A stretch of DNA of 64,000 bases, taken from NCBI GenBank assembly GCA_963801165.1, contig CAWDDT010000013.1:160001-224000 (forward strand), read 5' to 3'. The position numbers were made by a program, and so were the translations under genes. The stretch is from an uncultured bacterium. GTDB lineage: Bacteria > Actinomycetota > Acidimicrobiia > Spongiisociales > UBA5794. This document shows positions 1-47,397 of this stretch, piece after piece. The notes beneath the pieces are model-generated. The model saw nothing but the letters and a program-made list of their open reading frames with translations, was not told the DNA's origin and did no database searches. Numbering within the stretch: the first letter of the stretch is position 1; each line of letters begins with the position of its first letter.

Positions 1-2
1 CG

Positions 3-590
3 GTTGAGTGCGAACACTACGCCTGGGCGATGCTTTGTCTGTACAACGCCTCCCGACTCGGCGCCCCGGAGCACGTGGTGCAAGACGCAGGACAGATCGA
101 TGTCTCGCGCGACGTTGACCTGCTCGCCACCATGCGAGCCCACATCGAGGCGTTCGCCACTGGCGATGCCGGAGGCGTTGCGGATGCTGCGAAGCGCTTC
201 GCAGCGATGGGCGCGCACCTCCCCTCCGCCGAATGTTTCGCCCAGGCAGCATCCATTCTCGAAGGACGCGGCGCGTCGGCGGCAGCAGCCCGCTGTGTCG
301 TGCTCTCACGTGTTGCCGAGCTGCGCTGCGAAGACCCGCATACCCCGGCGCTGGCGGACCGTCCCCCGCTGGTGACGGGCCGCGAGGTCCAGATTGCATT
401 CGATGCTGCAACGGGTTTGAGCAGCCGGGAGATCGCTGCCAGGCGATACATTTCCGTGCGCACGGTCGACAATCATCTCCGGTCGGTGTACCGGAAGCTC
501 GATGTCGCCGGGCGCGACGAGTTGGCTTCCCTGTTGCCTGGTATCCCGGACACCGCAGATCGCGTGCTCGCTCCTAGAGTCGACAGCTAG
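3..590 (+). CDS. LuxR-family transcriptional regulator, C-terminal part (5' end outside window)
   Basis: Frame open from the window start; C-terminal LuxR HTH 'TGREVQIA..AATGLSSREIAARRYISVRTVDNHLRSVYRKL' preceded by a helical Ala-rich region. Confidence 0.85.
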   Translation, partial: VECEHYAWAMLCLYNASRLGAPEHVVQDAGQIDVSRDVDLLATMRAHIEAFATGDAGGVADAAKRFAAMGAHLPSAECFAQAASILEGRGASAAAARCVVLSRVAELRCEDPHTPALADRPPLVTGREVQIAFDAATGLSSREIAARRYISVRTVDNHLRSVYRKLDVAGRDELASLLPGIPDTADRVLAPRVDS

Positions 591-639
591 ACCGTGCTCC
601 TTACTGGGGACAGCGCTTGGATCGGCTCTGGCAAGTCGG

Positions 640-800
640 TTACAGCCCGACGGCCCGGACAAGGAACGCAGCCATCTCACCCCGCGTCACCGCATCATCC
701 GGACAGAACCGGTCATCAACCGGTGGGTTACAACCCTTCGTGATCCCCGCCGCCGACAACCTCTCGATATCCGCGTCGAAGACAGACCCGTCATCAAAAT
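640..800 (-). pseudogene. Isolated S-layer homology (SLH) domain fragment
   Basis: 'FDDGSVFDADIERLSAAGITKGCNPPVDDRFCPDDAVTRGEMAAFLVRAVGL*' closely matches the SLH repeats of the 44654-47005 protein; no plausible start or upstream domains before tRNA-Pro. Confidence 0.6.
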
Positions 801-889
801 CCCGGACGGCATGATCGCATCTCGTTCGGTCGAGGACACGTGGCGAAGATCGCCTTCCATGGCAGGCACTTCTCGACGTCTCCACCTCG

Positions 890-963
890 TCGGGCTGGCC
901 AGATTTGAACTGGCGACCCCCTGCTCCCAAAGCAGGTGCGCTACCAAACTGCGCTACAGCCCG
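890..963 (-). tRNA. tRNA-Pro(TGG)
   Basis: Reverse complement CGGGCTGTAGCGCAGTTTGGTAGCGCA CCTGC-TT-TGG-GA-GCAGG...GTTCAAATC...CAGCCCG-A; full cloverleaf; CCA not encoded. Confidence 0.96.
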
Positions 964-1025
964 TGGTAGCGCCATTGTTGCAGGTCTCCGTAGGTCTGTC
1001 GTACCGGCTTGATACGTTGTGCAGC

Positions 1026-1730
1026 ATGAGACCTCGAATACCCAACCGCTTGCAGCAGCGGGCATCCGGATGGAACCACCTGTCCAATCGACAGCGTTCC
1101 GATCTAGGCAAAGAACTACGCCGCCTCGGCTTGATGCAAAGCGAAATCCGAGAGATCATTCCGGTGGCGAAATCCACCCTGTCCTACTGGTGCCGCGACG
1201 TTCAATTGACTCAGAAACAGGTCGACAAGATCAGGCAACGCCGTTATTCGACTGCGGGCGGGCGTCGCGACACTCAGGCCAAGAGGCGAGAAGAGATCCG
1301 AGTCCTTCGAACCGAGGCCCAACAGCAAGCTACTGAGTGGTCCCGAGATCCGCTGTTTGCGGCTGGAGTCGCTCTCTACTGGGCGGAGGGATCCAAGACC
1401 CGCAATCACTTTTCGATCGCTAACACCGATCCGGCATTGCTACGCGTGTTCATTGGGTGGGTTCGCCAGTATCTCGATACCTCTGCAGATTTCCGGCTTT
1501 GCCTCCACCTCCACGAGGGCAACTGCGAAGAGGCCGCCAAGACGTATTGGAGAGCGGAGCTGGGCCTCCCAACAGCACGGTTCACCAAGACATACGTCAA
1601 ACCGCGCGGCACAGGACACAGGAAGAATCGCATACCGGCGGGTGTGTGTCGAGTTCTGGTATGCCGGGGAGGAGACCACTGGCAACGAACAATGCAATGG
1701 ATTGACAACATGAGTGAGTGCATGGTCTGA
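1026..1730 (+). CDS. tRNA-associated HTH protein with LAGLIDADG-like 'LYWAEG' domain
   Basis: N-terminal HTH ('LRRLGLMQSEIREIIPVAKSTLSYW'), then 'AGVALYWAEGSK...FSIANTDP', resembling a LAGLIDADG helix plus beta-strand; lies between two tRNAs. Confidence 0.65.
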   Translation: MRPRIPNRLQQRASGWNHLSNRQRSDLGKELRRLGLMQSEIREIIPVAKSTLSYWCRDVQLTQKQVDKIRQRRYSTAGGRRDTQAKRREEIRVLRTEAQQQATEWSRDPLFAAGVALYWAEGSKTRNHFSIANTDPALLRVFIGWVRQYLDTSADFRLCLHLHEGNCEEAAKTYWRAELGLPTARFTKTYVKPRGTGHRKNRIPAGVCRVLVCRGGDHWQRTMQWIDNMSECMV

Positions 1731-1750
1731 AGGCTTGCTACAATCGCTCC

Positions 1751-1824
1751 GGGTCGCTAGCTCAATCAGGCAGAGCACCGGACTCTTAATCCGTAGGTTC
1801 AGGGTTCGATTCCCTGGCGACCCA
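1751..1824 (+). tRNA. tRNA-Lys(CTT)
   Basis: GGGTCGC acceptor stem pairs with GCGACCC; anticodon arm CCGGA-CT-CTT-AA-TCCGT; T-loop GGTTCGATTCC. Confidence 0.96.
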
Positions 1825-1870
1825 CTGCCGCCAGCGCTTACCGAGATCGATTGCTGTGGCGGCGTGTCAT

Positions 1871-1954
1871 GCGGGCGTGGCGGAAATGGAAGACGCGCCA
1901 GGTTTAGGTCCTGGTGGGCGAAAGCCCGTGGGGGTTCGAGTCCCTTCGCCCGCA
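1871..1954 (+). tRNA. tRNA-Leu(TAG), integration target
   Basis: GCGGGCG/CGCCCGC acceptor stem; CCAGG-TT-TAG-GT-CCTGG anticodon arm; long variable arm GGGC-GAAA-GCCC; GGTTCGAGTCC. Confidence 0.96.
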
Positions 1955-1955
1955 C
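1900..1955 (+). repeat. attL (3' half of tRNA-Leu)
   Basis: AGGTTTAGGTCCTGGTG and CGTGGGGGTTCGAGTCCCTTCGCCCGCAC both recur at 14477-14531. Confidence 0.9.
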
Positions 1956-2029
1956 TTGAGCCAGATACCCGCCCATCAGGGGATTCTGCCTCGCGGGCGG
2001 GTCCGCCGCCGGTCGACGAAGACAATCGT

Positions 2030-2049
2030 TTCTACCCAATCTTCTACCC
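2030..2049 (+). repeat. Putative integrase arm-type binding sites (TTCTACCC x2, 12-bp period), left arm
   Basis: TTCTACCCAATCTTCTACCC; the same tandem motif with the same period occurs at 14342-14361 near the other end. Confidence 0.7.
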
Positions 2050-2825
2050 GACCTCGTAGCGAGTCCAGAGGGGAACCGGGGCGATTAGCCATCGTTGCGC
2101 TCCGCACCGCGACCGCATGCCGATGCGCGGCAGCCAGTACCGTCTGATGTCGGCTCGTGCTTTCGCATGTGGGCCGTGGCGCTAACTGGCAGCAAGCTGG
2201 AAGGTCGCGTCGTGTGTGAACGTCGTCAGCGCCGTCTCGTCGCTCTGGCTGCCACTCTCAAACCTCCTTGAAGGTGTGAGCGGGGACCTGCTGGTCGTCA
2301 GACCGCTCGAGGTATTGCCGGGGGATGTCCGACGTGGCTTTGAGTGTCGCCGGGTGATTGGACCCCCGACGAGGCTCGCTTGTTCGACGGGTTATGAGCC
2401 CTTTCGGGTTCCCTTCATCATTTCGCGTTATCGCTCAATAGCCCGTGAGCCTGGGGTCCTGCGGGATCAGCGTGCTTCCTGATTCCGGCAGATGACCCCT
2501 CGTGACGCCCCGTCCGTTGGAAGGTTCGTTAGAAGAATGGCGTTCAGACCATGGGTCTTCGCCCTGCCGTGGCACCCACGCCCGGCGCCTCGGAACCACC
2601 TGATGGACGTCTTGTACGGTGGTGGCCGGTTTTGAAGACCGTTCGGGGCATTTCTCGGAAGTCGGCGACTCGCTGGGGATTCTGGCGTAAACCCTTATGA
2701 CACAATGGTTTACGACCACTCATCATCGTTGGTCATCTCGCGGTGGTTTGCATCGTTTCTCGTTCTCCCGCGCCCCCAGCGCGCCCCGAGATGCGGAAGA
2801 CTGCTCGCCGCGCTCACGCCCGGAT

Positions 2826-3140
2826 TCAGTCGCGGAGGGTTCTGAGAATGTCCTTCATGAGCAAGACGAGATGGAGGGCGTCGGTCGGTGACGGCTCGAA
2901 CTCGGGGATGAGATGGAGGTGGAAGTCGCGGGCCTGCGGTGTCTCGGCGTGAACAGCAAGCCCCGGCATCCGATCTCAGTGCCGAGCTGCGCCGTCCGGC
3001 TGATGGCGTCGGCGAGGAGACCGGCGCCGAGCCCGCGGCCCTCGTGCTCGCTCGACATCCCGAGAAGAACCAGCAGCGCCACCGACTGTGGGATAGCGGC
3101 CGGCACCATTGCTAACCCGGGTCGGAGCGTCCTCGGCGCA
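2826..3140 (-). pseudogene. GNAT acetyltransferase toxin (TacT/AtaT-like) remnant
   Basis: Across two frameshifts (~3089 and ~2953) it reads EDAPTRVSNGAGRYP/QSVALL...HEGRGLGAGLLADAISR...IGCRGLL/VHAETPQARDFHLHLIPEFEPSPTDALHLVLLMKDILRTLRD*; N-terminus missing. Confidence 0.8.
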
Positions 3141-3223
3141 CTCCCGGATAGCCACCGACCAACGAGCGCCAGCGTGAGTGCCGATGCAGAGCAGCATTTG
3201 AACTGCGCGATATCGCTCGGGAA

Positions 3224-4573
3224 TTGATGATCTGCGATATCCATGCCATAGGCATGACCGATGGGCGAGATTTTCGTGTGCCCATTGCGGAGATTCTCGG
3301 CCAGAATGGAGTCGTGGAATCCCGACCGCCCCTCGTAGGTGCACCCGCGCCGGAGCAGCAAGCAACCCGTTCCCTCGTCTTCTTGGCCGTGGTGGGCATT
3401 GCTGCCGGACTCTTTGGGTATCTTCTTGGAGTGACTGCCAACAGCGGTCAGGAGCCGGACCCGCCGAACGGGTTTCTTGCTCCTGTGGTATCTGGCGCCA
3501 CGACCGATACAAAGCAGGAGAATGACCGGACAGCGTCATCGTCGACAAGAGTGCCGGCGCTGGGTGCGACTAATGGTGCCACCTCTATGCCGCCGGTGCC
3601 AGGCCTTGTATCCGGTCCTGCCCTGCCGCAGGATCTACGTAGCTCGAGGTTCCGTCTCTTTCGGGGGGTGTGGCCGGAGCTCACGCTCGAGGAATGGACA
3701 ACCGAAGGTATCACGGCATCCGTACAGCTGCCGTGGCTTGCGAGTGGGCTGTCTGCCGACCAATCCGACGAACTGTTCGCATTCACCGCGCCGTCAGCCA
3801 CCGGGCAGACTCTCTATGTAGGCAGAAACAACATGTATGTAGCGGTATCAGCCGAACTTGCGGGAGGATGGTCATGGCACGGTTCTGAACCTGGGAAAGC
3901 AGCCTGGATCGAGGCGAGTGATGACGGGCGAGTAATGGTGTTCGGCCGACTTCAAGCAGAGATCTTGGGTGATCGTGGAGAGTATCTCGATGTAGCGGTA
4001 AATGCGCGGCACATCGGCGGAGCGCAACCAGATGAGTCGATCGTGGGACTTACGAGGTTTGGGATCGTGCTCCGCTCGTTCGACGAATCGGGACGGGCCA
4101 AGCTCGTCGCCCTTGACGGTGAAGTAGTGGCAGAAGCTGAGGGTATATTGCCGCTCGCCATCTCCGCCGACGGCTATGGATTGGCGGTTGTTCGATCGGA
4201 GGACCAGATTCAGTACGTCATCACCGACGAGGAGTTGAACCCTGTGACCAATCTCGGCCGCTATGACACGACAGCCGATTGGGTCGAATGGTCGCCGAGT
4301 GGCGAATACGTCGCATTCACACACACCGCTTTCCAAGATCGGGCATCGGACAGCGAGGTCCACCTTGAGATTTGGACCAGAAACGGACAGCCCGTGTTGG
4401 ACGTCCCGATACGTGCCGCAGTGTGGGATGGCGCTTGGACCGCTGATGAGTCGCGAGTAGTCATGGTGGCGAGCGATGCCGGTCCATGGCTTATCGCCAA
4501 CCCATCGACCGGCCAAATCCAAGCCCAGACCGTTGCGGCGGTGGCGGTGGCCGAGATAGACGCCAGCGGGTGA
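3224..4573 (+). CDS. Membrane-anchored protein with probable beta-propeller (TolB/WD40-like) domain
   Basis: Single TM 'LVFLAVVGIAAGLFGYLLGV', Pro/Ser/Thr linker, blade-like motifs 'VEWSPSGEYVAF', 'AWTADESRV', 'ISADGY'; start may be ATG 3254. Confidence 0.6.
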   Translation: MMICDIHAIGMTDGRDFRVPIAEILGQNGVVESRPPLVGAPAPEQQATRSLVFLAVVGIAAGLFGYLLGVTANSGQEPDPPNGFLAPVVSGATTDTKQENDRTASSSTRVPALGATNGATSMPPVPGLVSGPALPQDLRSSRFRLFRGVWPELTLEEWTTEGITASVQLPWLASGLSADQSDELFAFTAPSATGQTLYVGRNNMYVAVSAELAGGWSWHGSEPGKAAWIEASDDGRVMVFGRLQAEILGDRGEYLDVAVNARHIGGAQPDESIVGLTRFGIVLRSFDESGRAKLVALDGEVVAEAEGILPLAISADGYGLAVVRSEDQIQYVITDEELNPVTNLGRYDTTADWVEWSPSGEYVAFTHTAFQDRASDSEVHLEIWTRNGQPVLDVPIRAAVWDGAWTADESRVVMVASDAGPWLIANPSTGQIQAQTVAAVAVAEIDASG

Positions 4574-4778
4574 CCGAGGACACACTGGATTAGGTGTAGC
4601 GACCGCCAGGGATGCGTTTCTTGGGGCGAACGATCTTGATTGTCCGTTCCTATTCGTATCACCGCAAGATCCACGGTGTAGGCGAACTGATCCGCCGATC
4701 GACAAGGGTGATGCCGAGCATGCTGGGAAGGCAGTTCTATCGCCCGTATGACTTCCAATCACCGGGATCCCTATGGGG

Positions 4779-5405
4779 CTAGTCCAGGAGCCCTTGCTGT
4801 GCTGCCGCCATGAGCGCTTCGGTTTTGTTGGACGCGTCTAGCTTCCGGTACGTCGTAGCCAAAAGACGCTGCATGTTCCGTTCGCTATAGCCGATTGTGT
4901 CGGCCAACCTGCCAATCGTCACCCCGGAGGCGAGGATACGAAGCCAGTCAATCTCCTGGTCCGTCACTTGCATCGCGCCTTGACCCCTCGTGTCGGTTGG
5001 CGTCCAATCGCGAAAGACAACATGAGGCGCAATGGAGAGTCCCGCTCCGACGGCCTCTACGGCAACTACTAGCCAGTCGACAGACATCGCCACTGGAAGA
5101 ACGACCCACGCGCCGTATCGAAAGAGGGGTTCCGATAGGGCGGGCGAGGCAACCAGCGCGATGGTTGGGATCTGGGGAGTGTTCTCGCGAATTCGCAAGA
5201 ACAAGTCACAATCCTGTCGAGAGGCGCAGCCTGCTACCAGCAACGATGCGGACTCGCCCGCCACTGCCCACGCAACCGGATGGCTAACTTGCTGCACGTT
5301 CATACCGGCGGCTACGAGCACTGACTCGGCGCCAGCGGCTGTGAGTGGTGCAAGGCTTTTGGTTGCGATCCCGATCCGCATGTGTGCCCCCCTGTCGAAA
5401 CCCAC
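4779..5405 (-). CDS. LuxR/NarL-type regulator with degenerate receiver domain
   Basis: C-terminal 'VTDQEIDWLRILASGVTIGRLADTIGYSERNMQRLLATTYRKLDASNKTEALMAAAQQGLL'; REC-like N-terminus lacking obvious acidic residues. Confidence 0.8.
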   Translation of the reverse strand: MGFDRGAHMRIGIATKSLAPLTAAGAESVLVAAGMNVQQVSHPVAWAVAGESASLLVAGCASRQDCDLFLRIRENTPQIPTIALVASPALSEPLFRYGAWVVLPVAMSVDWLVVAVEAVGAGLSIAPHVVFRDWTPTDTRGQGAMQVTDQEIDWLRILASGVTIGRLADTIGYSERNMQRLLATTYRKLDASNKTEALMAAAQQGLLD

Positions 5406-5780
5406 ACGCCCCGCATTATCAGCCTACCCGATCACCAGACTTCTCGGCTCGGTATGCGCGAGAGCTTCCGGCGTCGCTTTCCCAATGACGGCGGACGCGA
5501 GAGGTGGCTTCTGCATATCGACCCATTGACGAGGGAGTCAGGCGCGAGGCCAGAGGCGTGGACCGCATTAGGCGGGGGGTTTGTGCCTGCATTGCGACGA
5601 CAAATGGCTGGCCGCTTCGGGCCAACCTTTGTCGTTGACGCGAGCTGGTGTCGTATCGAGAGGGATAGGGCAGGAGGTTTGTGAACTGATGCTGAGACCG
5701 GGCATAGACGACAGCGCTGGTAGGTTCGAGGCCGGGATCTTGCAGAGTCTCCTCGTGGTCGCCGCGGGTACGGGGGGAGT

Positions 5781-6368
5781 GTGATGTCTGCGAGGCATCT
5801 TGATCGCCGGGAAGTCCTCAGAATGATGGGGGTCTTTGTAGGAGGGGAAGTCGTCCTTACGAATCTTGGGGCCAGTCCTGCACGTGCCAGATCGGAGAAT
5901 CGGTACCGTAGCGACGCCATCGTTGTGGGATCGGTCATGGCTGTCGAAGCGGATTCGAATCAGATTGCGATCCGATCTGCTGTCCGATCTGAGGGATTCG
6001 TGGATATCGTCTGCTCGTCCAGGACGGTGTTCCTGCGTGACAGGCCTGCTGCAATCTCTGACTTCCTGACCGGAGACAAGATTGCGGTATTCGGAAGCCG
6101 CCAAGGCCAGTCACTCTTTGCAGCGACGGCTGTCCAGCCCGCCTATGAGGCGATGTTTGTTGATGTTGAATGGCCGCTCCCGGAGCGTGATATCACTATC
6201 CGAACTGAGCGGGGCGATCTCCTCATTCCCAACGGTGTCCTCAAGGTTGGTGAGACTGACCCAGCTCTCGTAGGTGATTTGACCCGAGTTCAGGCAACAG
6301 TTCGTCACGAGCCAGCGACGAACCGCTACGTGGCCGCCCTGATAGGCAACGGAGGCCACCACTCATGA
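5781..6368 (+). CDS. Tat-exported protein with OB-fold/DUF5666-like repeats
   Basis: Twin-arginine motif 'DRREVLR'; 'ISDFLTGDKIAVFG' is typical of DUF5666-like beta-barrels; stop overlaps the next start (ATGA). Confidence 0.6.
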   Translation: MMSARHLDRREVLRMMGVFVGGEVVLTNLGASPARARSENRYRSDAIVVGSVMAVEADSNQIAIRSAVRSEGFVDIVCSSRTVFLRDRPAAISDFLTGDKIAVFGSRQGQSLFAATAVQPAYEAMFVDVEWPLPERDITIRTERGDLLIPNGVLKVGETDPALVGDLTRVQATVRHEPATNRYVAALIGNGGHHS

Positions 6369-6934
6369 GCGTTCCGTCGGTTCTTGGCTGGATTGTCATT
6401 GTGACTTTGTCATGGGCCGGTGCAGCGAAGCTCCTTAACCCAGCCGCGACACTTGGTGGTATCCGGTCTACGCTTCGGGCTGTACCGATACCTCGCTGGT
6501 CGGTCTGGTTCTTGGTCGCAGCGGAACTCGGTATCAGCGCCGCCTTGGCGTTCGGATTGCTTAGCGGCAGTTTCGTCCAACCGCCAGCGCTAGGAGCTGG
6601 GATCCTTCTCGCATTGTTCACGGTGATAAACGCCGTGGACATGATCCAGGGCGGTGAAAGTTCGTGTGCGTGCTTCGGCGCCACCGACATCTATCCGATA
6701 AGATTCAAGTCCTTCGCCTTGGCCAGATCTGCGTTCCTCAGCTCGCTTGCATTTGTCCTAGCCGTCGCCCCACCGGGCCAAACCAGTGCCGTCGAAGAGA
6801 CGAAGGCCGCCATCCTCGCAGTGAGCATCGTCGCGATGGCAGCCGTGATTCTAAGGGCTGTCCAATCGGTACGCCTGTGGCCCGCGCACACAGTCAAAGT
6901 CAAAGAGGTAGTCGAAGAGGTTCTGGCGGTCTAG
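6365..6934 (+). CDS. mauE: MauE/DoxX-family redox-associated membrane protein
   Basis: 'AGAAKL..P', 'VAAELG', 'SCACFG' motifs and about 5 TM helices. Confidence 0.85.
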   Translation: MSVPSVLGWIVIVTLSWAGAAKLLNPAATLGGIRSTLRAVPIPRWSVWFLVAAELGISAALAFGLLSGSFVQPPALGAGILLALFTVINAVDMIQGGESSCACFGATDIYPIRFKSFALARSAFLSSLAFVLAVAPPGQTSAVEETKAAILAVSIVAMAAVILRAVQSVRLWPAHTVKVKEVVEEVLAV

Positions 6935-6982
6935 GAGCGATGAACATGCACCCAACAGGTACGAAACGACCGGGAGAGATCT

Positions 6983-7603
6983 ATGCCTGAAATGGATACC
7001 GCCTTGGTTGCAGCTCTCTTGGCATGGCAGGTCGTTGTAGCCGTTCTGATAGCAGTCCTTTTCCGGCAGGTCGCGCTGCTGTCAATCGCTATGAGTCAAC
7101 AAGACCCACCAGCGCGCAACTCAAATCTGGCAGTTGGGGTCCCAATCCCCCAAGAACTTGACTCAGACATGGTTGACCCCGCCGAAACAACGTACGTGTT
7201 CTGGCTATCCGTTGGCTGCGACGCGTGCGTCAGAGTTGCAGAAGAACTGGGCACCGCGATTTCGACGGGTGCATGGACCGAATCAACAGTTGCGTTGATC
7301 ACGGGGCCAGCCACCGCGGCTACGTCGCTATCGGACACAGCAGCCCTTCAGAATCGCACCATCGTCGACCCAGATGCCAGCTCAATAATCGAGACTCTCG
7401 GCCTGACAACGTCACCGTTCGTGATCAAGACCGCGAATGGCGTCGTCAGGGGGTGGAGCACCGTTACAAGCATTCCGGACTTGGAGAAGCTACGAACCGA
7501 TCCCGCCAGCGGCGATACTGACAAACGGGAGGAAGAGCAGATCGCATCGCCGAAATCTGAAGAGGCAGGGTCTACTCCATCAACATCGGGGTCGCACCGA
7601 TGA
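6983..7603 (+). CDS. MauD-like membrane-anchored thioredoxin-fold protein
   Basis: N-terminal TM ending 'VLFRQVALL', 'GVPIP', CxxC 'WLSVGCDAC', cis-Pro loop 'TSPF'. Confidence 0.8.
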   Translation: MPEMDTALVAALLAWQVVVAVLIAVLFRQVALLSIAMSQQDPPARNSNLAVGVPIPQELDSDMVDPAETTYVFWLSVGCDACVRVAEELGTAISTGAWTESTVALITGPATAATSLSDTAALQNRTIVDPDASSIIETLGLTTSPFVIKTANGVVRGWSTVTSIPDLEKLRTDPASGDTDKREEEQIASPKSEEAGSTPSTSGSHR

Positions 7604-7983
7604 TCAGCTCGCAGCGAACGGACGAGGACCTGCGGATATCGAACTCCGAGTCTGTTCCCAGCGGACCCACGTTCTTGACGCGGAGCGCATTTCTTGCTCG
7701 TGCCGCTGCCGTAGCGTTTGGCACTGCGGCCTTCCTGTTCGGCCTGCCAATGCCCTCCGCTCTGGCGTCGCATAACAGGTGTTGTCATGAATCCACTCCC
7801 CTCTGTTCTTGCTGCAACGGAGACACCTGCTGCGCTTCCGGCTGCACCATCCGGTGCGGCGATTGCCCTGGTGGTGGGTGCTCGTGGACGTGTTGCTACG
7901 GGACTGCGCTTTGGAACTGTAAGGACTGGAACGATCCAGCAGTAGGGAACTGCGTATGCATCGAAGGGTTGAGTCAATGCTAG
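7600..7983 (+). CDS. Tat-exported cysteine-rich peptide, distantly MauA (amine dehydrogenase light chain)-like
   Basis: Degenerate Tat motif 'TRSAFL', hydrophobic stretch, ALA cleavage site; predicted 71-aa mature region has 17 Cys and 3 Trp; 'CPGGGCSWTCC'. Confidence 0.75.
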   Translation: MISSQRTDEDLRISNSESVPSGPTFLTRSAFLARAAAVAFGTAAFLFGLPMPSALASHNRCCHESTPLCSCCNGDTCCASGCTIRCGDCPGGGCSWTCCYGTALWNCKDWNDPAVGNCVCIEGLSQC

Positions 7984-8038
7984 GTGGCCACTGGAAACGA
8001 TCCATCGGCAGCTCGACTTATGACGACATTGGAGCACC

Positions 8039-8740
8039 ATGAACACTGGACTGGTCGCCGTCCTATCGGCCGCAGCAATCACTGCCGCTCTCGTACAGCA
8101 AACACTTCCGTGAGGCGTCAACCTGGCACAAGACACCAGGTTTCCCGAAGGTCTTCGGGGCAGAGCCAAACCAAGACTCATTGCCAGCAGCTGGCACCTC
8201 ATCTTGCTGGGCGCTACCAGCGCACTGGCAGGCGCCGCGATAGGGCTTGGTCTCGGGGCTCTCAGCTCTGTGCTCAATCTGCCTCAACAGGGTTCCGTCG
8301 TTGCAGCTGCGACCCTCGGGATGGTGCTTGGCGGTCGAGAAGTGGCTGGTGCCAGTCTGAATCTGTGGCAGATCGACCGCGAAACACCGCGAGTTTGGGC
8401 AGAACGATCTCCGTTCTCCTGGGCAGTGAGAACGGGAACCCTCATCGGAACAGGGTTCGTCACCCGTATCGGCTACACCGTGTTCTACGTGGCTCCGATC
8501 GGTATCCTTCTTGCAGCAGACTCAATCAGCGGGGCAATCATCCTGGGAGCATACGGTGCCACAAGAGGCTTCTCGTCCCTGGTGCTCAACCGCCGCCTGG
8601 CCCTGGATGCCGGATTCGATACGCTAATGATGATTCTTTTCGGGTTGAGGACTAGAGCTCGGGTCCTCTCTGGAGTGGCGACGACACTCGTTTCCCTCAC
8701 AGGGCTGGCGTGGGCGCTCGTCTCAGCCGCCCAAGCCTAG
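8039..8740 (+). CDS. MauF/CcdA-like membrane protein with in-frame TGA at 8111 (candidate selenocysteine; alternatively a nonsense pseudogene)
   Basis: GGAG at 8031, ATG at 8039, MNTGLVAVLSAAAITAALVQQTLP-TGA-GVNL..., in frame with ORF 8204-8740 ('WQIDRETPRVW...GTLIGTGFVTRI', MauF-like). Confidence 0.75.
8114..8160 (+). promoter_or_regulatory. Candidate bacterial SECIS region (two hairpins after the in-frame TGA)
   Basis: AACCTGG(8120-26)/CCAGGTT(8136-42) stem with a 9-nt loop, and CCCGAA(8144-49)/TTCGGG(8154-59) stem with a GGTC loop. Confidence 0.4.
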
Positions 8741-9118
8741 AAACCAGGGGATCCCTTTGGTGTTCGTTGCGCACCCAAGCCCGACGTTGACGGCGAACCG
8801 GTCTTGTTTGGGCCTGTGAGCGTCGTCGTAGACGCGACCGGATCCTCGGTAGCAGGTTCGATTGTTCACAATCTGGGCGACAACGTGGGGACCGTGTACC
8901 ACAATAATCCGGAGCGAGCGAGGTCTCGGAGCGCTCCATTCCGTTTGGGAGGAGGGCCGAGCATCGCCAAACATAGTTGTGCGCTCAAGGAGTCGGATCG
9001 GTCAACGGTGCCCTAGATCACCTACCGCCCCGCACGTTATCGCACCAGCGTCCGGCAACCGGCAGTCGGCGCTGGCAAGACAGTGTCTGGATCGGGCTAG
9101 GCGTGGAGTGCCCGTATG

Positions 9119-11866
9119 TCAGCGGCCGATGTCGGGGATGTGCCGGGTCCAGGCGTGCTCGGTGATGTGGCGTTGCCTGGCGGTTTCGATGCTCTGGTTA
9201 ATCTGCTGCCAAATGCGGTTGTCGTCGGGGCTGAGATCCGGCTTGTCGTCGTGGTCGGTTGGGTGCGTTGCTTCTTGCTGATCGCCTCCGAGCTGGCTGT
9301 GTCCGAGCGAGGGGTTCAACACCCTGTCGGCTTCGAGGCGCGTTCGTTGGGTGATGGCGGGCTCGTCGATCCAATCCCGGATGATGGCTTGGGTGAGGAT
9401 ATCGGCTGCCGTTTCGCCTTCGTTGGTGACGACGTAGGCGTGGTTGGAGCTTCGGCCGCGGGTCAGCGGCGTGTAGAGACCGCGGCCGTCGACGGGGCCG
9501 TCAACGAGGAGGAGACCGGTGTCGACGGTGCGGCCTTGGGTGGCATGGCTGGTCTGCGCATAGCCAAGCTCGAGATCCTCAGCGGCGTAGTCGGCGGGAA
9601 GACGCACCCTGCCCGAGCGTCCGGTGACGGTGACGGCGCCGTCGGTGTGGATAGCTTCGATCGTCCAGTGGTCCCGGTTCTTGACCATGGCGCCGCGGTC
9701 GGTGCGCAGGGTGCGCTGGTTACGGCGGGTAACCACCTCGTCGCCGACGAGCAGCCGCTCACGGGCAACGTCGAGGGCCGGCCCGTCCGGGTCGAGCTCA
9801 CCGGCGTCGATGCGTCTCTGTTGGGCATGCTGGTTGAGCCGGTTGACGGTGTGGTTGGTGTTGGCCATCAACGCCACCGACTCGCCCCGCCGCCGCGCCT
9901 GATACCAGGCGTCGACGACGGCGGCCTCCATCTCGTTGGGGGTGCCGTCGTGGAGGCGACCGTGACGCTGATACTCGCCGAGCACGCCGATGTCGCCTTG
10001 GCGGAGACGCCGGGTGGCGTCGGCTTCCCAGTCGTGGGTGAAGCGGTGGATGTGGTCAAGTTCGATGGCACCACAGGTGTCGATGAGGTGGGCGAACATG
10101 CCGCCCCGACCAACAGCGGAGAACTGGCGGGGATCACCCACCATCACCACCCGCCATCCTTTCACGTCGGCGAGATCGACGAATGCCGCGAGTTTCGGGG
10201 TGGAGACGGTGCCGGCTTCATCAACGATCACCGTCGAACCCCGCGGCAAATCGTATCCCGGTTGTGGTGGCCGGTCGGGCCGGGAGTGTTCGTAGAGGAG
10301 CTTGTCCAGCGTGTCGGCCATCATGGTGGTTTCTGCGGCGAGCACCTCGGCGGCCGCTGCGGTGGCTGCCACCCCGAACACCGTCTGGCCGCGGTGCTGT
10401 AGGTAGGCGACGGCGGGGGTGAGGGCGACGGTCTTGCCGGATCCGGCGGGTCCGACGATCAGCTCCAACGGTACGCTACCGGCTACTGCCCGACACGCTT
10501 CGGACTGGCCCACACTCAAACCGGCCGTATCGAGACCCCGACGTGGGGTGTTGATGATGTCGGCGAAACGGCGCAGGCGTTGAGCCCATTCCACGATCCG
10601 TTCCTCCTCCTCAAGAATCGCTCCGGTGGTGAGGGCCCGGTCGACGGCGGCTTCGGCGATGGGGCGCCCATCACGGCGCAACACGGCACCAGACGGCACG
10701 GGTGGGGACAGGTCGACACAGCGGTCCGCCGCAACACGGTTGGCGAGGTCCTGCAGGAAGCTGCACAGACGATCCGGTTCGACGGTGACATTGGTGGGGA
10801 CCTGGGCGGCGAGCTCACGGACCAGCTCGGCGGGACGCCACGTCGACTGCCGCTCCCCCAAAGCCTCCAACGCCCCCTCCACCATCCCTGTCATTGTCGC
10901 CTGGTCGATGCCCGCCGCCCGACGGACCCGACCCACCGCGCCCACGGCGATGTCGTGTGGCTCGAAACCGCGAGCGGCCGCCCGCATCCGCCACCCGGCA
11001 TGCAACTCGCCCGCAGCGTGATCGTGAGTCTTAGCGGGGCGACTATCGAGCACGGCTTCGCGTTCCAAGCGCCACCGCTCCCGTCCAGTCGGTTCCCGCC
11101 CGAGGTCGCTGCGGAACCGAACCAGTTTTCCGCCAACCCGCTGCTCGACGTCATGGCTGCGTTGGGAGAACTCGGCCAGTATCTCCGCATCGACACCGAC
11201 CATCTCGGCAATCCCATTGTCAGGTTGGTGCCATCGGACACCGAGGCGGCGGGTCAGCTCGGCCCGTAGCCCGGCGTGATACAACCCCGACAGGGTCCGC
11301 TGATCCATCTTGATGGTGCGGGCATCGAGCGCCAACCACCGTCCGTCCGGAGCCTTGACTCTGTTGGCGATCACCGCATGGGTATGCAGCTGCGGGTCGA
11401 GGCGACGGCTGGTGTGCTGACGAAACACCCCCACCACGATCCCTTCGGCGTCAACACACATCACATGACCCCGCCGCCGCATCCTCGTGTGCGCTTGGGA
11501 CTCGACCCAACCCAACACCGCGTCGACCGCCTGGCCATGCGCCTCGGTCACCTGTGCCCTGAGGTGTTCGTCGCCCATGGCGAACAGCACCGACACCGAC
11601 TTCGGCGCCGAAAAGGTCGCATCGAACCCCCGCACCGAGTCATCCCCGAAGCGGCGACCCAACCGCTCCCCCGTCGTCGGATGCAATCCGGCCATCACCG
11701 CCAGAAACGCCTCATCCTCGACCACACCATCCAGACCCAACTCGGCGGCGCCGTATCCGAACCAGCGACCCGGCGGCTCACCACTGTCGAGGTAGTACGA
11801 CGGGAGCTGCTCGGTGTAATAGCGACCCGCCTCGGCACCTTTCAACGTCGTCACCCGCACCGTCAC
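9119..11866 (-). CDS. mobF: MobF (TrwC-like) relaxase-helicase
   Basis: N-terminal YY motifs, 'FDATFSAPKSVS', HUH 'HTSRRLDPQLHTH', Walker A 'GPAGSGKT', 'DEAG', 'GYAQTSHATQGRTVD'. Confidence 0.95.
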   Translation of the reverse strand: MTVRVTTLKGAEAGRYYTEQLPSYYLDSGEPPGRWFGYGAAELGLDGVVEDEAFLAVMAGLHPTTGERLGRRFGDDSVRGFDATFSAPKSVSVLFAMGDEHLRAQVTEAHGQAVDAVLGWVESQAHTRMRRRGHVMCVDAEGIVVGVFRQHTSRRLDPQLHTHAVIANRVKAPDGRWLALDARTIKMDQRTLSGLYHAGLRAELTRRLGVRWHQPDNGIAEMVGVDAEILAEFSQRSHDVEQRVGGKLVRFRSDLGREPTGRERWRLEREAVLDSRPAKTHDHAAGELHAGWRMRAAARGFEPHDIAVGAVGRVRRAAGIDQATMTGMVEGALEALGERQSTWRPAELVRELAAQVPTNVTVEPDRLCSFLQDLANRVAADRCVDLSPPVPSGAVLRRDGRPIAEAAVDRALTTGAILEEEERIVEWAQRLRRFADIINTPRRGLDTAGLSVGQSEACRAVAGSVPLELIVGPAGSGKTVALTPAVAYLQHRGQTVFGVAATAAAAEVLAAETTMMADTLDKLLYEHSRPDRPPQPGYDLPRGSTVIVDEAGTVSTPKLAAFVDLADVKGWRVVMVGDPRQFSAVGRGGMFAHLIDTCGAIELDHIHRFTHDWEADATRRLRQGDIGVLGEYQRHGRLHDGTPNEMEAAVVDAWYQARRRGESVALMANTNHTVNRLNQHAQQRRIDAGELDPDGPALDVARERLLVGDEVVTRRNQRTLRTDRGAMVKNRDHWTIEAIHTDGAVTVTGRSGRVRLPADYAAEDLELGYAQTSHATQGRTVDTGLLLVDGPVDGRGLYTPLTRGRSSNHAYVVTNEGETAADILTQAIIRDWIDEPAITQRTRLEADRVLNPSLGHSQLGGDQQEATHPTDHDDKPDLSPDDNRIWQQINQSIETARQRHITEHAWTRHIPDIGR

Positions 11867-11962
11867 CCTGCCACCCCCACCCTGTCACGGCAGGTGTGCA
11901 CTCGTCTGTTGCTCTTGGGCCGGTGCAGGAGGTGCGTGGACGTGGGCATCGGTACTCCGCTC

Positions 11963-12367
11963 TCAGTCGGCGGTGGCTACTCGGTCGAAGAGATCGAGTT
12001 GGTCGGTAGTAGCGCGTTGGCGAGTTCGCGACCGTCGGCTGGTGGTTGTGACGGTTGCAGGATCGGGGTTGGCGGGAAGTTCTGGACCCATCGCCGCTCG
12101 GGCCTGCGGCGTCCCCGTGGACTCCGGGTCGTCGTTGCTGCTGGAGACGTCCACGCTCGACAGGTCGGCACCGATCATCTCCTCGAGGGCTGAGCGTGGC
12201 ACCCGCAACACGTGACCGAGATCGACTACCGGCAGCCCGGAGTGACCGCCGGTCTCCCGCCACTCCCGCGCCATGGCATACGCCTTGGTGCGCCCGATCC
12301 GCAACAGCTCTCCGGCCTCTTCGACCGTCAGCAGCAACGGAATCGGTACCCCATTCACAATATACAA
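11963..12367 (-). CDS. Excisionase-like HTH DNA-binding protein
   Basis: 'PLLLTVEEAGELLRIGRTKAY...LPVVDLGHVLRVPRSALEE' (HTH_17/Xis pattern); divergent from the XRE regulator. Confidence 0.85.
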   Translation of the reverse strand: MYIVNGVPIPLLLTVEEAGELLRIGRTKAYAMAREWRETGGHSGLPVVDLGHVLRVPRSALEEMIGADLSSVDVSSSNDDPESTGTPQARAAMGPELPANPDPATVTTTSRRSRTRQRATTDQLDLFDRVATAD

Positions 12368-12417
12368 CCTTTGCAGGCACTACTCATAGACAGTATGATA
12401 GCAGCGTGCTCACACAT

Positions 12418-12447
12418 TTCACACACAAGCGTCATGTTGTGTACGAT
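12418..12447 (+). promoter_or_regulatory. Putative promoter for a leaderless xre-int transcript
   Basis: TTCACA-18 bp-TACGAT ending 6 nt before ATG 12454. Confidence 0.35.
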
Positions 12448-12453
12448 ACGGAG

Positions 12454-13197
12454 ATGCCCGCACATCCAGATCCACCACCCAGCGGCGAGGTCGACCTCAA
12501 CCAGATCGTCGCCTACAACCTGCGCGAAGCCCGCCAACTACGCGGATGGACCCAAGAAGGGCTCGCCGACCGGCTCGAGCCCTACCTCGGCCAACGCCTC
12601 ACCCAGGCCGGCATCTCCTCGATGGAAAGGGCCTGGGACGGAGACCGCCGACGAGAGTTCGACGCACACGAACTGCTGATCTTCGCCATGGTGTTCGACC
12701 TCCCCATGCTCTACTTCCTACTCCCCCCACCCGGCGACCGCCGCCGCCTTCAAGCCACCAGCGCCCAAGTCAACCATCTGTACGCCTGGCTCCTCGGCCG
12801 GCACGGACAGGTTGAACCGGTGTACGAACGGCTCCGCCAGCTCGGCATCACCGACCCCACCGCAGCCGAAGAGACCGTCGAGAAGATCACCGGGATCCCC
12901 GGCGCAGCAAAGCAGTGGAGCTACCGGGAACGGCGCAAGGAGCTGCTCCTCGCCATCCTCAACGAGCACGCCGACGACTTCGACAAGAACATCGAAGAAC
13001 TGGGACGCATCGTCGACCACCTCCGCCAGGTCGGCATCCGCGGCTTCGTCGCCGAACACACCCACGACGAAGACTTCACCTACCGAGAAGGCCACCCACC
13101 ACGGACGGTACGTCAGGACCCTCTCGTTAGCCGTGAGAACGAGGCAGCACGAGACGACTCAAGCGATGAGAGGGCGACACCGGGAGGTAGGCCGTGA
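12454..13197 (+). CDS. XRE-family HTH regulator of the element
   Basis: 'NQIVAYNLREARQLRGWTQEGLADRL...TQAGISSMER'; stop overlaps the integrase start. Confidence 0.85.
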   Translation: MPAHPDPPPSGEVDLNQIVAYNLREARQLRGWTQEGLADRLEPYLGQRLTQAGISSMERAWDGDRRREFDAHELLIFAMVFDLPMLYFLLPPPGDRRRLQATSAQVNHLYAWLLGRHGQVEPVYERLRQLGITDPTAAEETVEKITGIPGAAKQWSYRERRKELLLAILNEHADDFDKNIEELGRIVDHLRQVGIRGFVAEHTHDEDFTYREGHPPRTVRQDPLVSRENEAARDDSSDERATPGGRP

Positions 13198-14393
13198 GGC
13201 GTCGAGGGCACATCGCCCGGAAGGGCCGGAAGTTCTACGCAGTCGTCGACCTTGGGCGCGACGAGCTGAGCCGCAGGCGCCGTCGGCGATGGTCACGCGG
13301 GTTCGAGACGGAGAGCGAGGCCGACGCCGAGCTCGTCCGGCTCCTCCACTCCCTCGACCAAGGCGACTCGATCGAGCGAACCAAGCTCACCGTCGAGCGG
13401 TACCTCTTGGAGCGGTGGCTCCCCATTGCCGAAGGAAACCTGGCGGTTACCACGCAGAAGGAGTACCGGGTGACCGTGACGGCGTACGTCGTCCCTCACA
13501 TCGGGCATCTTCGGCTCAATCGAGTCGATGCCACAACGATCGACCGACTGTACGTGAAACTGCGCAGGGAGGGTGGCCGCGATGGTCGCCCGCTGTCCGC
13601 CAAGACGGTCCGGAACATCCATGGTGTGCTGTCGGCGGCGTTCGGGTTCGCCGTCAAGAAAGGCCTGCTCACCCGCAACCCGGTGGCGCTCGCCGAAACA
13701 CCGGACGCGGGGCGACCCGACACGGCTCCACCGTGGACCGCCCAAGAGCTTCGGTCCTTCATCAACCACGTCGACGGTGACCGCCTGGAAGCGCTGTGGT
13801 GGATGATCCCGTTCACCGGGATGCGCCGCTCCGAGGCGCTTGGCCTCGCCTGGGACGACGTGGATCTCGACCGCGGGACGATCGCCGTGACCCATACGGT
13901 CGTGGACGCCGACGGTGGACCAGTAAGGCGCCGCGACACCAAGACGCGGCAAAGCCGACGCCCGATCTCGCTCGACGTCGACACGCTGGGAAAGGTCCGC
14001 GAGCATCGCCGCCGTCAGCTCGAGGAGCGGATGTTCGTAGGCGCCGGCTACAACGACATCGGTCTCGTGTTCTGCCGCCCCGACGGGTCGACGCTGCGTC
14101 CCGATTGGGTATCACGACGCTTCGCAAGGATCAGAGACGAGGCCGGTCTACGGCGAATCACCCTTCGCGATCTCCGTCACGTATGGGCGACACTCGCCCT
14201 GGAGTCAGGCATCCACCCCAAAGTCGTCCAGGAACGGCTCGGCCACTCCTCGATCGCCATGACAATGGACCAGTACTCACACGTCATCGAAGGTCTCGAC
14301 CGCCAAGCAGCGGCCACGGTGGCCGACCTGGTGCTCCGACCTTCTACCCAGACTTCTACCCAACCCCCCGCCATCGGACGCGATCAGGCATAA
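13194..14393 (+). CDS. int: Tyrosine recombinase/integrase
   Basis: Arm-binding N-terminus; 'TGMRRSEALGLAW', 'RDLRH', 'VQERLGHSSIAMTMDQYSH'; adjacent to attR. Confidence 0.96.
   Translation: MRRRGHIARKGRKFYAVVDLGRDELSRRRRRRWSRGFETESEADAELVRLLHSLDQGDSIERTKLTVERYLLERWLPIAEGNLAVTTQKEYRVTVTAYVVPHIGHLRLNRVDATTIDRLYVKLRREGGRDGRPLSAKTVRNIHGVLSAAFGFAVKKGLLTRNPVALAETPDAGRPDTAPPWTAQELRSFINHVDGDRLEALWWMIPFTGMRRSEALGLAWDDVDLDRGTIAVTHTVVDADGGPVRRRDTKTRQSRRPISLDVDTLGKVREHRRRQLEERMFVGAGYNDIGLVFCRPDGSTLRPDWVSRRFARIRDEAGLRRITLRDLRHVWATLALESGIHPKVVQERLGHSSIAMTMDQYSHVIEGLDRQAAATVADLVLRPSTQTSTQPPAIGRDQA
14342..14361 (+). repeat. Putative integrase arm-type binding sites, right arm
   Basis: TTCTACCCAGACTTCTACCC, matching 2030-2049. 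Confidence 0.7.
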
Positions 14394-14476
14394 CGCGTTG
14401 ACATACGCTTCCGAGCAAACCCTTGCCGTGCAATGCTTCTCGACAGTGGACAACACCCGGCGGGATGAAGCGTCCT

Positions 14477-14531
14477 AGGTTTAGGTCCTGGTGAGCAATG
14501 CTCGTGGGGGTTCGAGTCCCTTCGCCCGCAC
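14477..14531 (+). repeat. attR (displaced 3' half of tRNA-Leu)
   Basis: Anticodon loop to acceptor stem duplicated; variable arm GAGC-AAT-GCTC instead of GGGC-GAAA-GCCC; no 5' half. Confidence 0.92.
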
Positions 14532-14546
14532 CTACTCGGCCGGCAC

Positions 14547-14996
14547 CTATTCGATGGGGTCGTTCAGCAACGTCGCCAGGATGTGCTCGTCGTCGCCGGC
14601 GAGCAGAAGCCGGTACACCCAGCCCCAGAGCCGCTGATGCTCGGCGCCAAAACGCAGTGTCCGCTCCCACTCCTCGACATATGCGAGCGAACTGCTGAGC
14701 AGATCATCGAGCGCATGGGCTAGGGAATCACCGACACCGGAGATCGGCGGCCCGAATACCAGCGAGACCTCGACCTGGACATGTGTCTTGTCACCCGCTG
14801 GAGCCATTGTGGCCCGGAAAGGAAACAGCTCCTCGAGCCGTGACTCGAGCTCGGTGCGGGTGTCGACCTCGAACGGCTCGGTGCTGACCGGGGAGGCGTC
14901 GCAGTGGAACTCGATCGGCCGGTGATGGGCGAGCACATCGAGCACGGCGCCGATGTCGGGTTGGGGGATGTGTGGCTTGACCGCTAGGAGTGTCAT
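14547..14996 (-). CDS. Hypothetical protein, HicB-like antitoxin-like fold
   Basis: 'ISGVGDSLAHALDDLL...YVEEWE...H..LWGWV' resembles actinobacterial HicB-type antitoxins; no toxin partner seen. Confidence 0.5.
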   Translation of the reverse strand: MTLLAVKPHIPQPDIGAVLDVLAHHRPIEFHCDASPVSTEPFEVDTRTELESRLEELFPFRATMAPAGDKTHVQVEVSLVFGPPISGVGDSLAHALDDLLSSSLAYVEEWERTLRFGAEHQRLWGWVYRLLLAGDDEHILATLLNDPIE

Positions 14997-15349
14997 CAGG
15001 ATTGTCCTTGGTCACGGCCGGGTTGTCCGGTGAACCGACCATCTTGATACTTCTGTCGGCGTGCTCGGCGATGACTTGAGGAACCATGCCTACGGTGACC
15101 GATCCCGGGCCACGTGCGGGGAGAATTGAACGAGGCGCGCAATCACCCAGGGGCGAATGGCATTGGCACCATCCACCCCTGGGTGATCAGTTCATCGCCG
15201 CTTGGACGCACTCTCGACATCGGGAAGCTGGTAGTCAACACAGATACACTTCGGCACCGTGCACCCTCGCTCCAACTTGTGCTCGACCCGCGGATGTCCG
15301 CAGCCGGCGCAACGTTGTCGCCCACCATCGGCTGGTCGAGAGTGGTTAC

Positions 15350-15606
15350 TCACCGGGAACGCTCTTTGGCCTGGTTCACCTTGAGATCGCGGCCGTCGAC
15401 GTTGCGACCGTTGAGCGCACCGATAGCCGCCGCGGCGTCATCGGCAGAAGCCATTTCGACGAACCCGAATCCGCGTGCGAGCGGCCGGTGTCGCGATCGG
15501 TGATCACATGGGCATCGGTCACTTCACCGTGCTCAGCGAAGAGAGCTTCCAGGTCGGATGATTTGGTAGAGAACGCGAGGTTCCCCACATAGATGTTGGT
15601 AGACAC
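15350..15606 (-). pseudogene. RRM RNA-binding protein, frameshifted (or sequencing error)
   Basis: AAAGGAG RBS, GTG start; RNP2 'IYVGNL', 'ITDRDTGRS' / frameshift at ~15477 / 'RGFGFVEM...ALNGRNVDGRDLKVNQAKERSR*'; 257 nt, not a multiple of 3. Confidence 0.85.
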
Positions 15607-15831
15607 GACAATGCTCCTTTGAGCCTCAAACCGTCGAATAGGGGCTGACCGCCCGCACTGATCCGCGGCCGAGACCGGTACGTAGCACCGGCGAAAAAGT
15701 CGCACTGTCCTGCGGTGACCTCACCCTGACGGAAACTAGAAAGGCGAGGTCGGCGTTGCACGCCTTGTGCGTGCTCACCACCAAGCGTAGCGCGATTTCG
15801 TTGATGACGACATCCGTTTCTCATCCAGCCG

Positions 15832-47005: not shown

Positions 47006-47397
47006 TTCTCCCCTGCCTCTCCCTGCTATGTCGTGAAACCTAGCCGACGCGCGCGTGTGATTGCGACACTTTTCGGTCCGACCCTGCCCCGTCGGTAAGA
47101 TGCTGATCACCGAAGTGGGAACTGCCCGGCGGCGAGGCCCCACTTGTGGCCCGTATCACCGGCTGCAGTCTGATCTGTTCCAGGACGTGGCAAATCGTGT
47201 CGGCGTGGGTGACCTCAATGGGTGTGAGCGTTCGGTTTGAGTTGGGAATGATTTCGCGTTCTACTGGGACAACGTGGCATCGAGCGCGTTGATCGGGTCG
47301 ATCCGCTGGGAGCTACCCCGGGTGGGCTGCTGGTCGCAATCGAGCGGCGGGTTCCATGCGAGCCGGCCTCGCCGTGCGAGCGTTGCCGACGGTGCGA

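Follow-up and report, generated by a model that had tools for sequence, protein, structure and literature searches.

Here, we report a cysteine-rich mini-protein encoded in a 64,000-nucleotide stretch of DNA (the window) from an uncultured bacterium of the Acidimicrobiia (GenBank contig CAWDDT010000013.1), where its gene lies on a 12.6-kb integrative mobilizable element (the island). Our reading, to which we give a probability of roughly 60%, is that the mini-protein is exported, carries eight disulfides plus one reserved Cys, and owes its folding to a MauE-type oxidase and a thioredoxin-fold partner encoded in the same operon, the whole being a mobile, self-contained oxidative-folding module built on the mauE-mauD-mauA plan. 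Within this reading we infer both the export and the redox chemistry, including the direction of the latter for the thioredoxin-like protein. The 71-residue mature part that follows the A-L-A site has 17 Cys (24%), 3 Trp and four CC doublets, and the segment C-P-G-G-G-C-S-W-T-C-C occupies residues 89–99 of the 127-residue precursor; the translation agrees on the mature length, the site and the residue counts with an earlier annotation made from the letters of the window (the sequence-only reading). The peptide gene is present as a single copy within the window and comes fourth in an operon with translational coupling, in which ATGA overlaps join 5781–6368 to 6365–6934 and 6983–7603 to 7600–7983 (Table 1).

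Cys-richness by itself is weak evidence for a gene in such G+C-rich DNA. There are 902 stop-to-stop segments of at least 40 amino acids in the window, and two besides the peptide open reading frame (ORF) have at least 10 Cys at more than 8%; we take these two to be antisense frames, judging from their coordinates. The peptide ORF stands above chance because it is conserved in relatives, and a chance ORF in G+C-rich DNA is ruled out by this conserved family. Phmmer against 1.84 billion cluster representatives gave 27 matches at E ≤ 1e-3, the best at 2.8e-17 with 47% identity. One match of 1836 amino acids (P0008) was left out of the family alignment because the match is confined to the leader part; the other 26 relatives (114–221 amino acids) were aligned with the window peptide over the leader and the Cys pattern, and all family counts below refer to these 27 sequences. 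The 26 relatives are all unnamed or "hypothetical" and nearly all metagenome-derived (JGI/IMG, Logan and ENA assemblies; one cluster member is also in NCBI), and neither Pfam nor NCBIfam gave a family match beyond noise for any of the 27 members. Ten positions of the alignment are invariant, i.e., R28, C62, C69, C72, W96, C107, D109, C118, C120 and C127, and the Ala of the A-x-A site, C78, C82, C89 and C99 are kept at ≥90%. The residue at position 110 is Trp in 21 members, Tyr in 4 and Phe in the other 2. The Cys/Trp pattern is conserved on homolog alignment, which the sequence-only reading had named as a check, with seven Cys and W96 unchanged throughout. In the literature that we could search, there is no description of this rare family, of its parity rule (see below) or of its invariant Trp and Asp.

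Other searches with the peptide were empty. A word-indexed homolog search found no relative; genome-contig scans with 2- and 5-sequence alignments gave 50 and 70 pattern sites, none of them upheld by tblastn; and a plasmid collection had no match for the peptide (tblastn), for the operon DNA 5700–8800 (blastn) or for the MauE-like protein. The exact 127-residue peptide and the product of 5781–6368 are absent from a collection of 15 billion proteins, in which the products of 6365–6934 and 6983–7603 are present (NCBI/ENA contig). Because the exact sequence is absent from that collection and no representative exceeds 47% identity, it seems that gene callers have overlooked the peptide gene.

The number of Cys in the family points to its chemistry. 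Counted from the cleavage-site column onward, the mature Cys number is odd in 26 of the 27 members (13 in three, 15 in eight, 17 in eleven, 19 in four), and the sole even member, with 14 Cys, comes from a 990-bp contig; the chance of such odd parity is 28/2^27, about 2e-7, relatedness ignored. What the sequence-only reading had noted for one peptide, an odd count that leaves at least one thiol free, is therefore a family rule. On trees built with all Cys masked, at least 13 changes in Cys number are needed, against one in parity. Since the count is odd in 26 members, Cys are evidently gained and lost in pairs, which indicates disulfides; pairwise turnover with a constant remainder of one is expected of disulfides plus one reserved Cys and not of a thiolate cluster. 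Single columns point the same way: Cys presence at columns 95 and 108 is concordant in 27/27 members (Fisher p 5e-8) and at columns 61 and 98 in 26/27 (Fisher p 7.5e-7), a co-variation that we regard as suggestive only, and C71 is lost together with one Cys of the 77/78 doublet in 4/4 cases. If the co-varying Cys are set aside, the reserved Cys must be among the nine C62, C69, C72, C89, C99, C107, C118, C120 and C127.

The AlphaFold 2 (AF2) model of the peptide has block-mean values of the predicted local distance difference test (pLDDT) of 77–92 over residues 61–127, with strands at 95–100, 103–112 and 116–126. Positions 95 and 108 would be cross-strand neighbors if the turn is at 101–102, a register read from the strand limits and not from coordinates; W96 and D109 flank this pair and therefore would sit near each other. 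Foldseek with the peptide model gave no match at E ≤ 0.001, either among 350,542 PDB chains (best E 0.88) or among viral structures. When the family profile was compared with PDB sequences, the top match was the designed repeat protein 8etq, which we rejected as an artefact made of five weak repeated stretches in the leader region only.

This Cys pattern also bears on a metallothionein-like or metal-storage peptide, one of the options of the sequence-only reading, whose Cys would bind Cu, Zn or Cd as thiolates. A Cys content of 24% with CC and CxC motifs would suit it, but thiolate clusters would require neither the kept parity nor Cys that change in pairs, the confident beta-sheet model is a misfit, the peptide has an export leader and a disulfide-forming pair next to it, and no metal-resistance gene family was found in the island. 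We consider it highly improbable.

Evidence also comes from the two genes directly upstream of the peptide. The product of 6365–6934 belongs to the MauE family both by its profile score, which is above the curated cut-off, and by a CXC-F-G loop: C-A-C-F-G, with C101 and C103 as the sole Cys of the protein, lies in the stretch that separates the third hydrophobic segment (73–97) from the fourth (116–136). The product of 6983–7603 has a thioredoxin fold and a membrane anchor near its N-terminus (3–39); its sole Cys are C79 and C82 (C79-D-A-C82), ahead of helix 80–94. In its AF2 model, a membrane helix at the N-terminus is followed by a thioredoxin core of beta-alpha-beta type in which helix 1 begins with the CxxC, and Foldseek places this model among ResA, CcmG, DsbE, DsbF and TlpA-type oxidoreductases (best E 3.8e-6, ResA; 90 matches at E ≤ 1e-3). 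By sequence it has no Pfam or NCBIfam match at E ≤ 1 and no PDB match, and it is not recognizable as MauD (BLASTP against Paracoccus denitrificans MauD, E 7.3); one relative appeared in the word-indexed search (P0042), with the CxxC kept. The Cys of the accessory proteins look functional, as there are one (C78 of the first gene product), two (C-A-C), two (C-D-A-C) and none (8204–8740).

Taken together, we propose the following sequence of events. The long Tat-like leader (Tat, twin-arginine translocation), with its invariant R28 and A-x-A site, would carry the 127-residue precursor across the membrane. On the outer face, the membrane-anchored CDAC thioredoxin-fold protein would make or shuffle the disulfides of the peptide, and the MauE-family protein (C-A-C-F-G) would recycle it and pass the electrons to quinone in a DsbA/DsbB-like manner. 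Signal peptidase would free the 71-residue, three-stranded, beta-rich core, in which 16 of the 17 Cys of the window peptide would form eight disulfides. The one Cys left unpaired in nearly every member may lie near W96 and D109 in the fold and probably marks a functional site. The substrate of the module would be a Cys-rich protein that is unrelated to MauA, or unrecognizably diverged from it, and that travels as cargo of a mobilizable island. The claim of the sequence-only reading that the product is exported and heavily cross-linked is supported, as far as sequence features go, by the A-x-A site, the MauA-like leader and the MauE and CxxC proteins encoded upstream.

Several points weigh against this model. 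The MauE-like protein has no pairwise similarity to P. denitrificans MauE (E 6.9), and a word-indexed search found no relative of it at E ≤ 1e-5, a strict threshold that leaves weaker relatives unlisted. The AF2 model of the 206-residue protein was built from 2 sequences and is moderately confident (pLDDT 66.6). ResA and CcmG are reductants of apocytochrome c, and since they are the best structural matches, the fold does not fix the direction of the chemistry of the thioredoxin-like protein. The tie of the peptide family to MauE and thioredoxin genes comes from this one locus. The Cys-masked trees are weakly supported (ultrafast bootstrap ≥95 on 2 of 25 inner branches), and for either of the co-varying Cys pairs only about 3 changes fall on the tree, too few for a sign test. 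Because the window leader (T-R-S-A), like that of its two nearest relatives, has a lone Arg, both Tat and Sec export are possible for the window peptide. Expression of the peptide gene is, like its export, something we suppose.

The leader deserves a closer look, as it is the one part of the precursor that resembles MauA. The sequence-only reading had called the motif T-R-S-A-F-L non-canonical, correctly so: at residues 27–32 the consecutive RR of (S/T)RRxFLK is absent. Across the family the motif is [LF]-[GT]-R-[SNR]-R-[FL]-[LV], with S in 13, N in 10 and R in 4 members at position 29 and R in 22/27 at position 30, i.e., R-x-R in 22/27 and RR in 4/27. The Tat leader profile TIGR01409 is matched by just 2/27 members, at E 0.17. 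When the family leader was aligned by hhalign with the MauA leaders (10 MauA sequences from annotated plasmid records), the score was 29.4 (E 1.4e-5), which none of 823 shuffles reached (maximum 21.1), and in an alignment of whole proteins the leaders alone align (25 columns, E 3e-5). R28 of the family falls on the first Arg of the RR in MauA leaders, and the two sets of leaders are equal in length and hydrophobicity. In E. coli pre-pro-penicillin amidase, a leader with Asn between two Arg (R-N-R) still targets Tat (cited in the TatP paper, PMC1182353); this resembles the family consensus R-[S/N]-R-F-L (22/27 members), whereas the window peptide and its two closest relatives lack the second Arg (R-S-A). 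A TTG at codon 26 could serve as an alternative start and give a short Sec-type leader, which is less likely, as the ATG at 7600 has the ATGA coupling and the relatives have 14–60 residues ahead of the invariant Arg. A lipoprotein was also set aside, no lipobox being visible.

Is the mature peptide then a very diverged, shortened MauA-type subunit? In such a protein the reserved Cys or a second aromatic residue would be cross-linked to W96, giving a cofactor like cysteine tryptophylquinone (CTQ) or tryptophan tryptophylquinone (TTQ), D109 would be the active-site carboxylate, and the peptide would act as a redox or catalytic subunit. The long Tat-type leader and the MauE family and thioredoxin fold encoded directly upstream, in the mauE-mauD-mauA order, are as expected of MauA. 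W96 and D109 are invariant, one Cys is left over, position 110 is aromatic (W/Y/F) in 27/27, and an Asp in the active site is a feature of tryptophylquinone enzymes. The motifs C-P-x-G, W-x2-3-C, Y..CC and C-x-C are collinear with MauA when hhalign is relaxed (56 aligned columns), and in the ESM Atlas PF02975 occurs in 6 of the 30 clusters nearest to the peptide (score 0.94, 159 shared features), which by the calibration of the tool is a lead only.

All homology tests of this kinship failed. None of the 27 family members matches PF02975 at E ≤ 10, and there is no NCBIfam match either; the family profile finds no methylamine dehydrogenase (MADH) chain in PDB; searches with hidden Markov models (HMMs), those of the 10 MauA sequences against the family and the reverse, without filters, give negative scores throughout; and no MADH chain is among the 50 Foldseek matches listed for the peptide model. 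With hhalign the mature domains align at a probability of 0.6% (score 13.15), a level that is equaled or exceeded in 94 of 559 cases when the columns of the MauA domain are shuffled. The sequence-only reading had compared CPGGGCSWTCC with the segment around the quinone-forming Trp of MauA; the motif is truly present there, MauA reading C-P-P-G...S-W-V-A-S-C, but the CPxG...W..C likeness seems, from these alignments, to be not beyond chance. Two conserved Trp would be needed for TTQ and W96 alone is invariant, position 110 being Trp in just 21/27. The family stops about 7 residues past C-x-C and has no counterpart of the C-terminal segment of MauA with its invariant W-C, whose Trp (W165 of the precursor) we take to be the second TTQ Trp. 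Finally, when the island ORFs were compared with Pfam and NCBIfam, no family of MauB, MauG, amicyanin or flavoprotein type came up. In our analysis, homology of the mature peptide to the MADH light chain, as the sequence-only reading had suggested, was not found, and the leader alone resembles that of MauA; we consider a MauA-type subunit quite unlikely. In passing, a plasmid of Thermomicrobium roseum (NC_011961, our L010), a Thermomicrobiota megaplasmid, has diverged MauA-like genes at 6001–6444 and 10720–11172; there are three matching places in this record, one MauA-like gene lies in a stretch without an annotated gene, and the neighbors are hypothetical proteins of about 400 amino acids.

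The idea of a modified Trp, put forward in the sequence-only reading, is not idle, because W96 is invariant, and a Cys-Trp cofactor in the peptide is possible. A bolder version is that the peptide is a minimal scaffold of about 70 residues on which the reserved Cys, the Trp and the Asp form a Cys-Trp cross-link or a tryptophylquinone-like center without MauG or a flavoprotein, the eight disulfides merely holding it in place. We regard this as a long shot. If true, this would add a novel type of small protein with a redox or catalytic task outside the cytoplasm, one that a mobile element has spread and that either descends distantly from the MADH light chain or has converged on it. Among the island ORFs, Pfam and NCBIfam revealed no radical S-adenosylmethionine (radical-SAM), MNIO, cyclodehydratase or lanthionine-enzyme family, i.e., no dedicated modifying enzyme, beyond thiol-disulfide oxidoreductases, of the kind that acts on peptides made by ribosomes and modified after translation (RiPPs).

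The reserved Cys could instead form an intermolecular disulfide with C78 of the exported first-gene product, giving an envelope-anchored pair of light and heavy chains. The first gene belongs to the same operon, its product has an RR leader and exactly one Cys, and the odd Cys count of the peptide is kept in the family; ESM Atlas leads for this product are "cell wall protein" clusters of Actinomycetota (0.92) and DUF5666 (0.82), which are leads only. We would not expect this pairing to hold.

It is in our view unlikely that the mature peptide acts like a defensin, as a secreted cystine-knot product of antimicrobial or toxin-like kind, with the downstream membrane protein as its immunity factor and the whole as an island-borne competition trait. 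In favor of this, the peptide is small, would be exported and is hyper-stable by design; the island that bears it is mobilizable and has a lower G+C; its gene is followed by that of a membrane protein free of Cys; and a regulator adjoins the operon. Laterosporulin, a defensin-like bacteriocin, comes second in the Foldseek search of the peptide model, at a nonsignificant E of 1.1. No similarity to a known bacteriocin, defensin or immunity family was seen, and the reserved Cys and the invariant Trp and Asp would be left unexplained. Please note that such a function is compatible with a disulfide-bonded client of the MauE-type pathway and not opposed to it. The membrane protein at 8204–8740 is possibly part of the operon, and an immunity or transport function for it is only a guess. 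In its frame there is a 24-residue hydrophobic ORF at 8039–8113, separated from it by a TGA at 8111–8113 and about 90 nucleotides; the two may represent one membrane gene that is interrupted or has a misplaced start, or the short ORF may stand on its own.

The coordinates of the peptide, its operon and the element that carries them are collected in Table 1. The direct repeats attL and attR share stretches of 20 and 35 nucleotides at 94–95% identity, and the G+C content is 0.58–0.61 across the cargo (3.5–9 kb), compared with 0.64–0.68 in the flanks. It is possible that the divergent LuxR/GerE-type protein regulates the operon; a promoter and terminator scan of 5300–9200 gave nothing above shuffles. 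An HTH_3 protein is likewise encoded on the 12.6-kb element, and a further island ORF at 3224–4573 encodes 449 amino acids with an N-terminal hydrophobic segment, no family and weak DPPIV_N-type matches (E 0.13); this protein showed no similarity to MauB (E 2.1). PADLOC and PHROGs gave no match for 11 island ORFs, and Rfam found three tRNAs and nothing else in positions 1–16000.

Table 1. Positions in the window of the Cys-rich peptide gene, its operon and the element carrying it.
Feature	Position	Strand	Description and evidence
Integrative mobilizable element, 12.6 kb	1900..14531	.	Carries the operon as cargo; sits at tRNA-Leu(tag)
attL	1900-1955		Inside tRNA-Leu(tag)
LuxR/GerE-type regulator, divergent	4779..5405	-	GerE E 0.0013, below cut-off; MadR-family C-terminus E 5e-5, far below cut-off
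First operon gene	5781..6368	+	195 aa; RR leader D-R-R-E-V-L; single Cys C78; no family found
MauE-family membrane protein	6365..6934	+	189 aa; PF07291 E 9.8e-13, 49 bits vs cut-off 27
Membrane-anchored thioredoxin-fold protein	6983..7603	+	206 aa; N-terminal hydrophobic helix ~3-39; C-D-A-C; S-P-F at 144-146
Cys-rich mini-protein precursor	7600..7983	+	127 aa plus stop; ORF translation, family alignment, AF2 model
Leader of Cys-rich peptide	residues 1-56, nt 7600-7767	+	T-R-S-A-F-L at 27-32, A-L-A at 54-56
Mature part of Cys-rich peptide	residues 57-127, nt 7768-7980	+	71 aa
Downstream membrane protein	8204..8740	+	178 aa, no Cys, three hydrophobic regions; 220-bp gap after peptide
TrwC relaxase-helicase	9119-11866	-	Pfam
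HTH_17 protein	11963-12367	-	Pfam
Tyrosine integrase	13194-14393		Pfam
attR	14477-14531		56-nt copy of tRNA-Leu(tag) 3' half

Elsewhere in the window, two adjacent, very large ORFs at 48405–52913 (-) and 52915–56676 (-) encode 1502 and 1253 amino acids with high G+C at third codon positions and no Pfam match at E ≤ 1e-5. The 829-residue protein of 44654–47143 (-) has cadherin-like, Big_9 and SLH domains, which suggests an S-layer-anchored surface protein of the host.

Natural clients of MauE outside methylamine dehydrogenase are so far not known, and MauE itself was only recently shown to be DsbB-like. The locus reported here offers a compact, self-contained test case in which one transferable operon encodes an oxidase, a thioredoxin-like partner and a client that, with a predicted eight disulfides in its 71 residues, is extreme. 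The leftover Cys beside an invariant Trp and Asp makes for a sharp prediction, whose outcome would either bring to light a new cofactor formed from the protein itself or define bacterial cystine-knot peptides of a new class. The apparent lack of the peptide in public protein sets is also a reminder that short Cys-rich genes are under-annotated.

The closest known plan is that of the mau locus. On plasmid 1 of P. denitrificans (L001) the order is mauB-mauE-mauD-mauA, and the window operon repeats the mauE-mauD-mauA part of it with proteins of similar size (MauE of 186 amino acids there and 189 here; MauD of 200 and 206). None of the three window proteins is pairwise similar to MauA, MauD or MauE (E 2.1, 7.3 and 6.9, respectively), the mature peptide has 71 residues compared with about 130 in MauA, its Cys count is odd and that of MauA even, and the island, unlike the mau locus, has no mauB, mauG or amicyanin gene. 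The gamma subunit of quinohemoprotein amine dehydrogenase is another small protein with functional Cys, Trp and Asp, bearing CTQ plus thioethers between Cys and Asp/Glu; it has few Cys, is not known to contain disulfides and depends for its maturation on a radical-SAM enzyme together with a flavoprotein, and such maturation genes are not found among the island ORFs.

Cys-rich precursors next to mauE have been flagged before. In the decRiPPter report, uncharacterized Streptomyces clusters have mauE (one also mauD) beside predicted Cys-rich precursors (PMC7794033). Like the window operon, they are actinobacterial and, as presented there, without the remaining mau genes; the three precursors listed are 46–61 amino acids long (PMC7794033). 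By eye, these three lack the leader motif and the C-x-D-W...C-I-C pattern of our family. A MauE-linked Cys-rich precursor is thus of a kind already known, because decRiPPter had flagged such pairs (PMC7794033), and in literature on MauE combined with cysteine-rich, precursor peptide, twin-arginine or tryptophylquinone we found nothing closer than these families. As for the oxidase itself, a recent preprint reports that MauE proteins replace DsbB in E. coli, that they cannot do without their periplasmic CXC, which typically has F-G after it, that MauE probably acts via a thioredoxin-superfamily partner, and that about 90% of MauE-bearing species lack MauA (bioRxiv 10.64898/2026.03.05.709764). 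The window MauE-like protein has the CXC-F-G signature in the same position as the MauE proteins described there (bioRxiv 10.64898/2026.03.05.709764). MauE appears in that text as a generalist folding factor, whereas the window MauE-like protein is very diverged and coupled, within one operon on a mobile element, to one extreme substrate.

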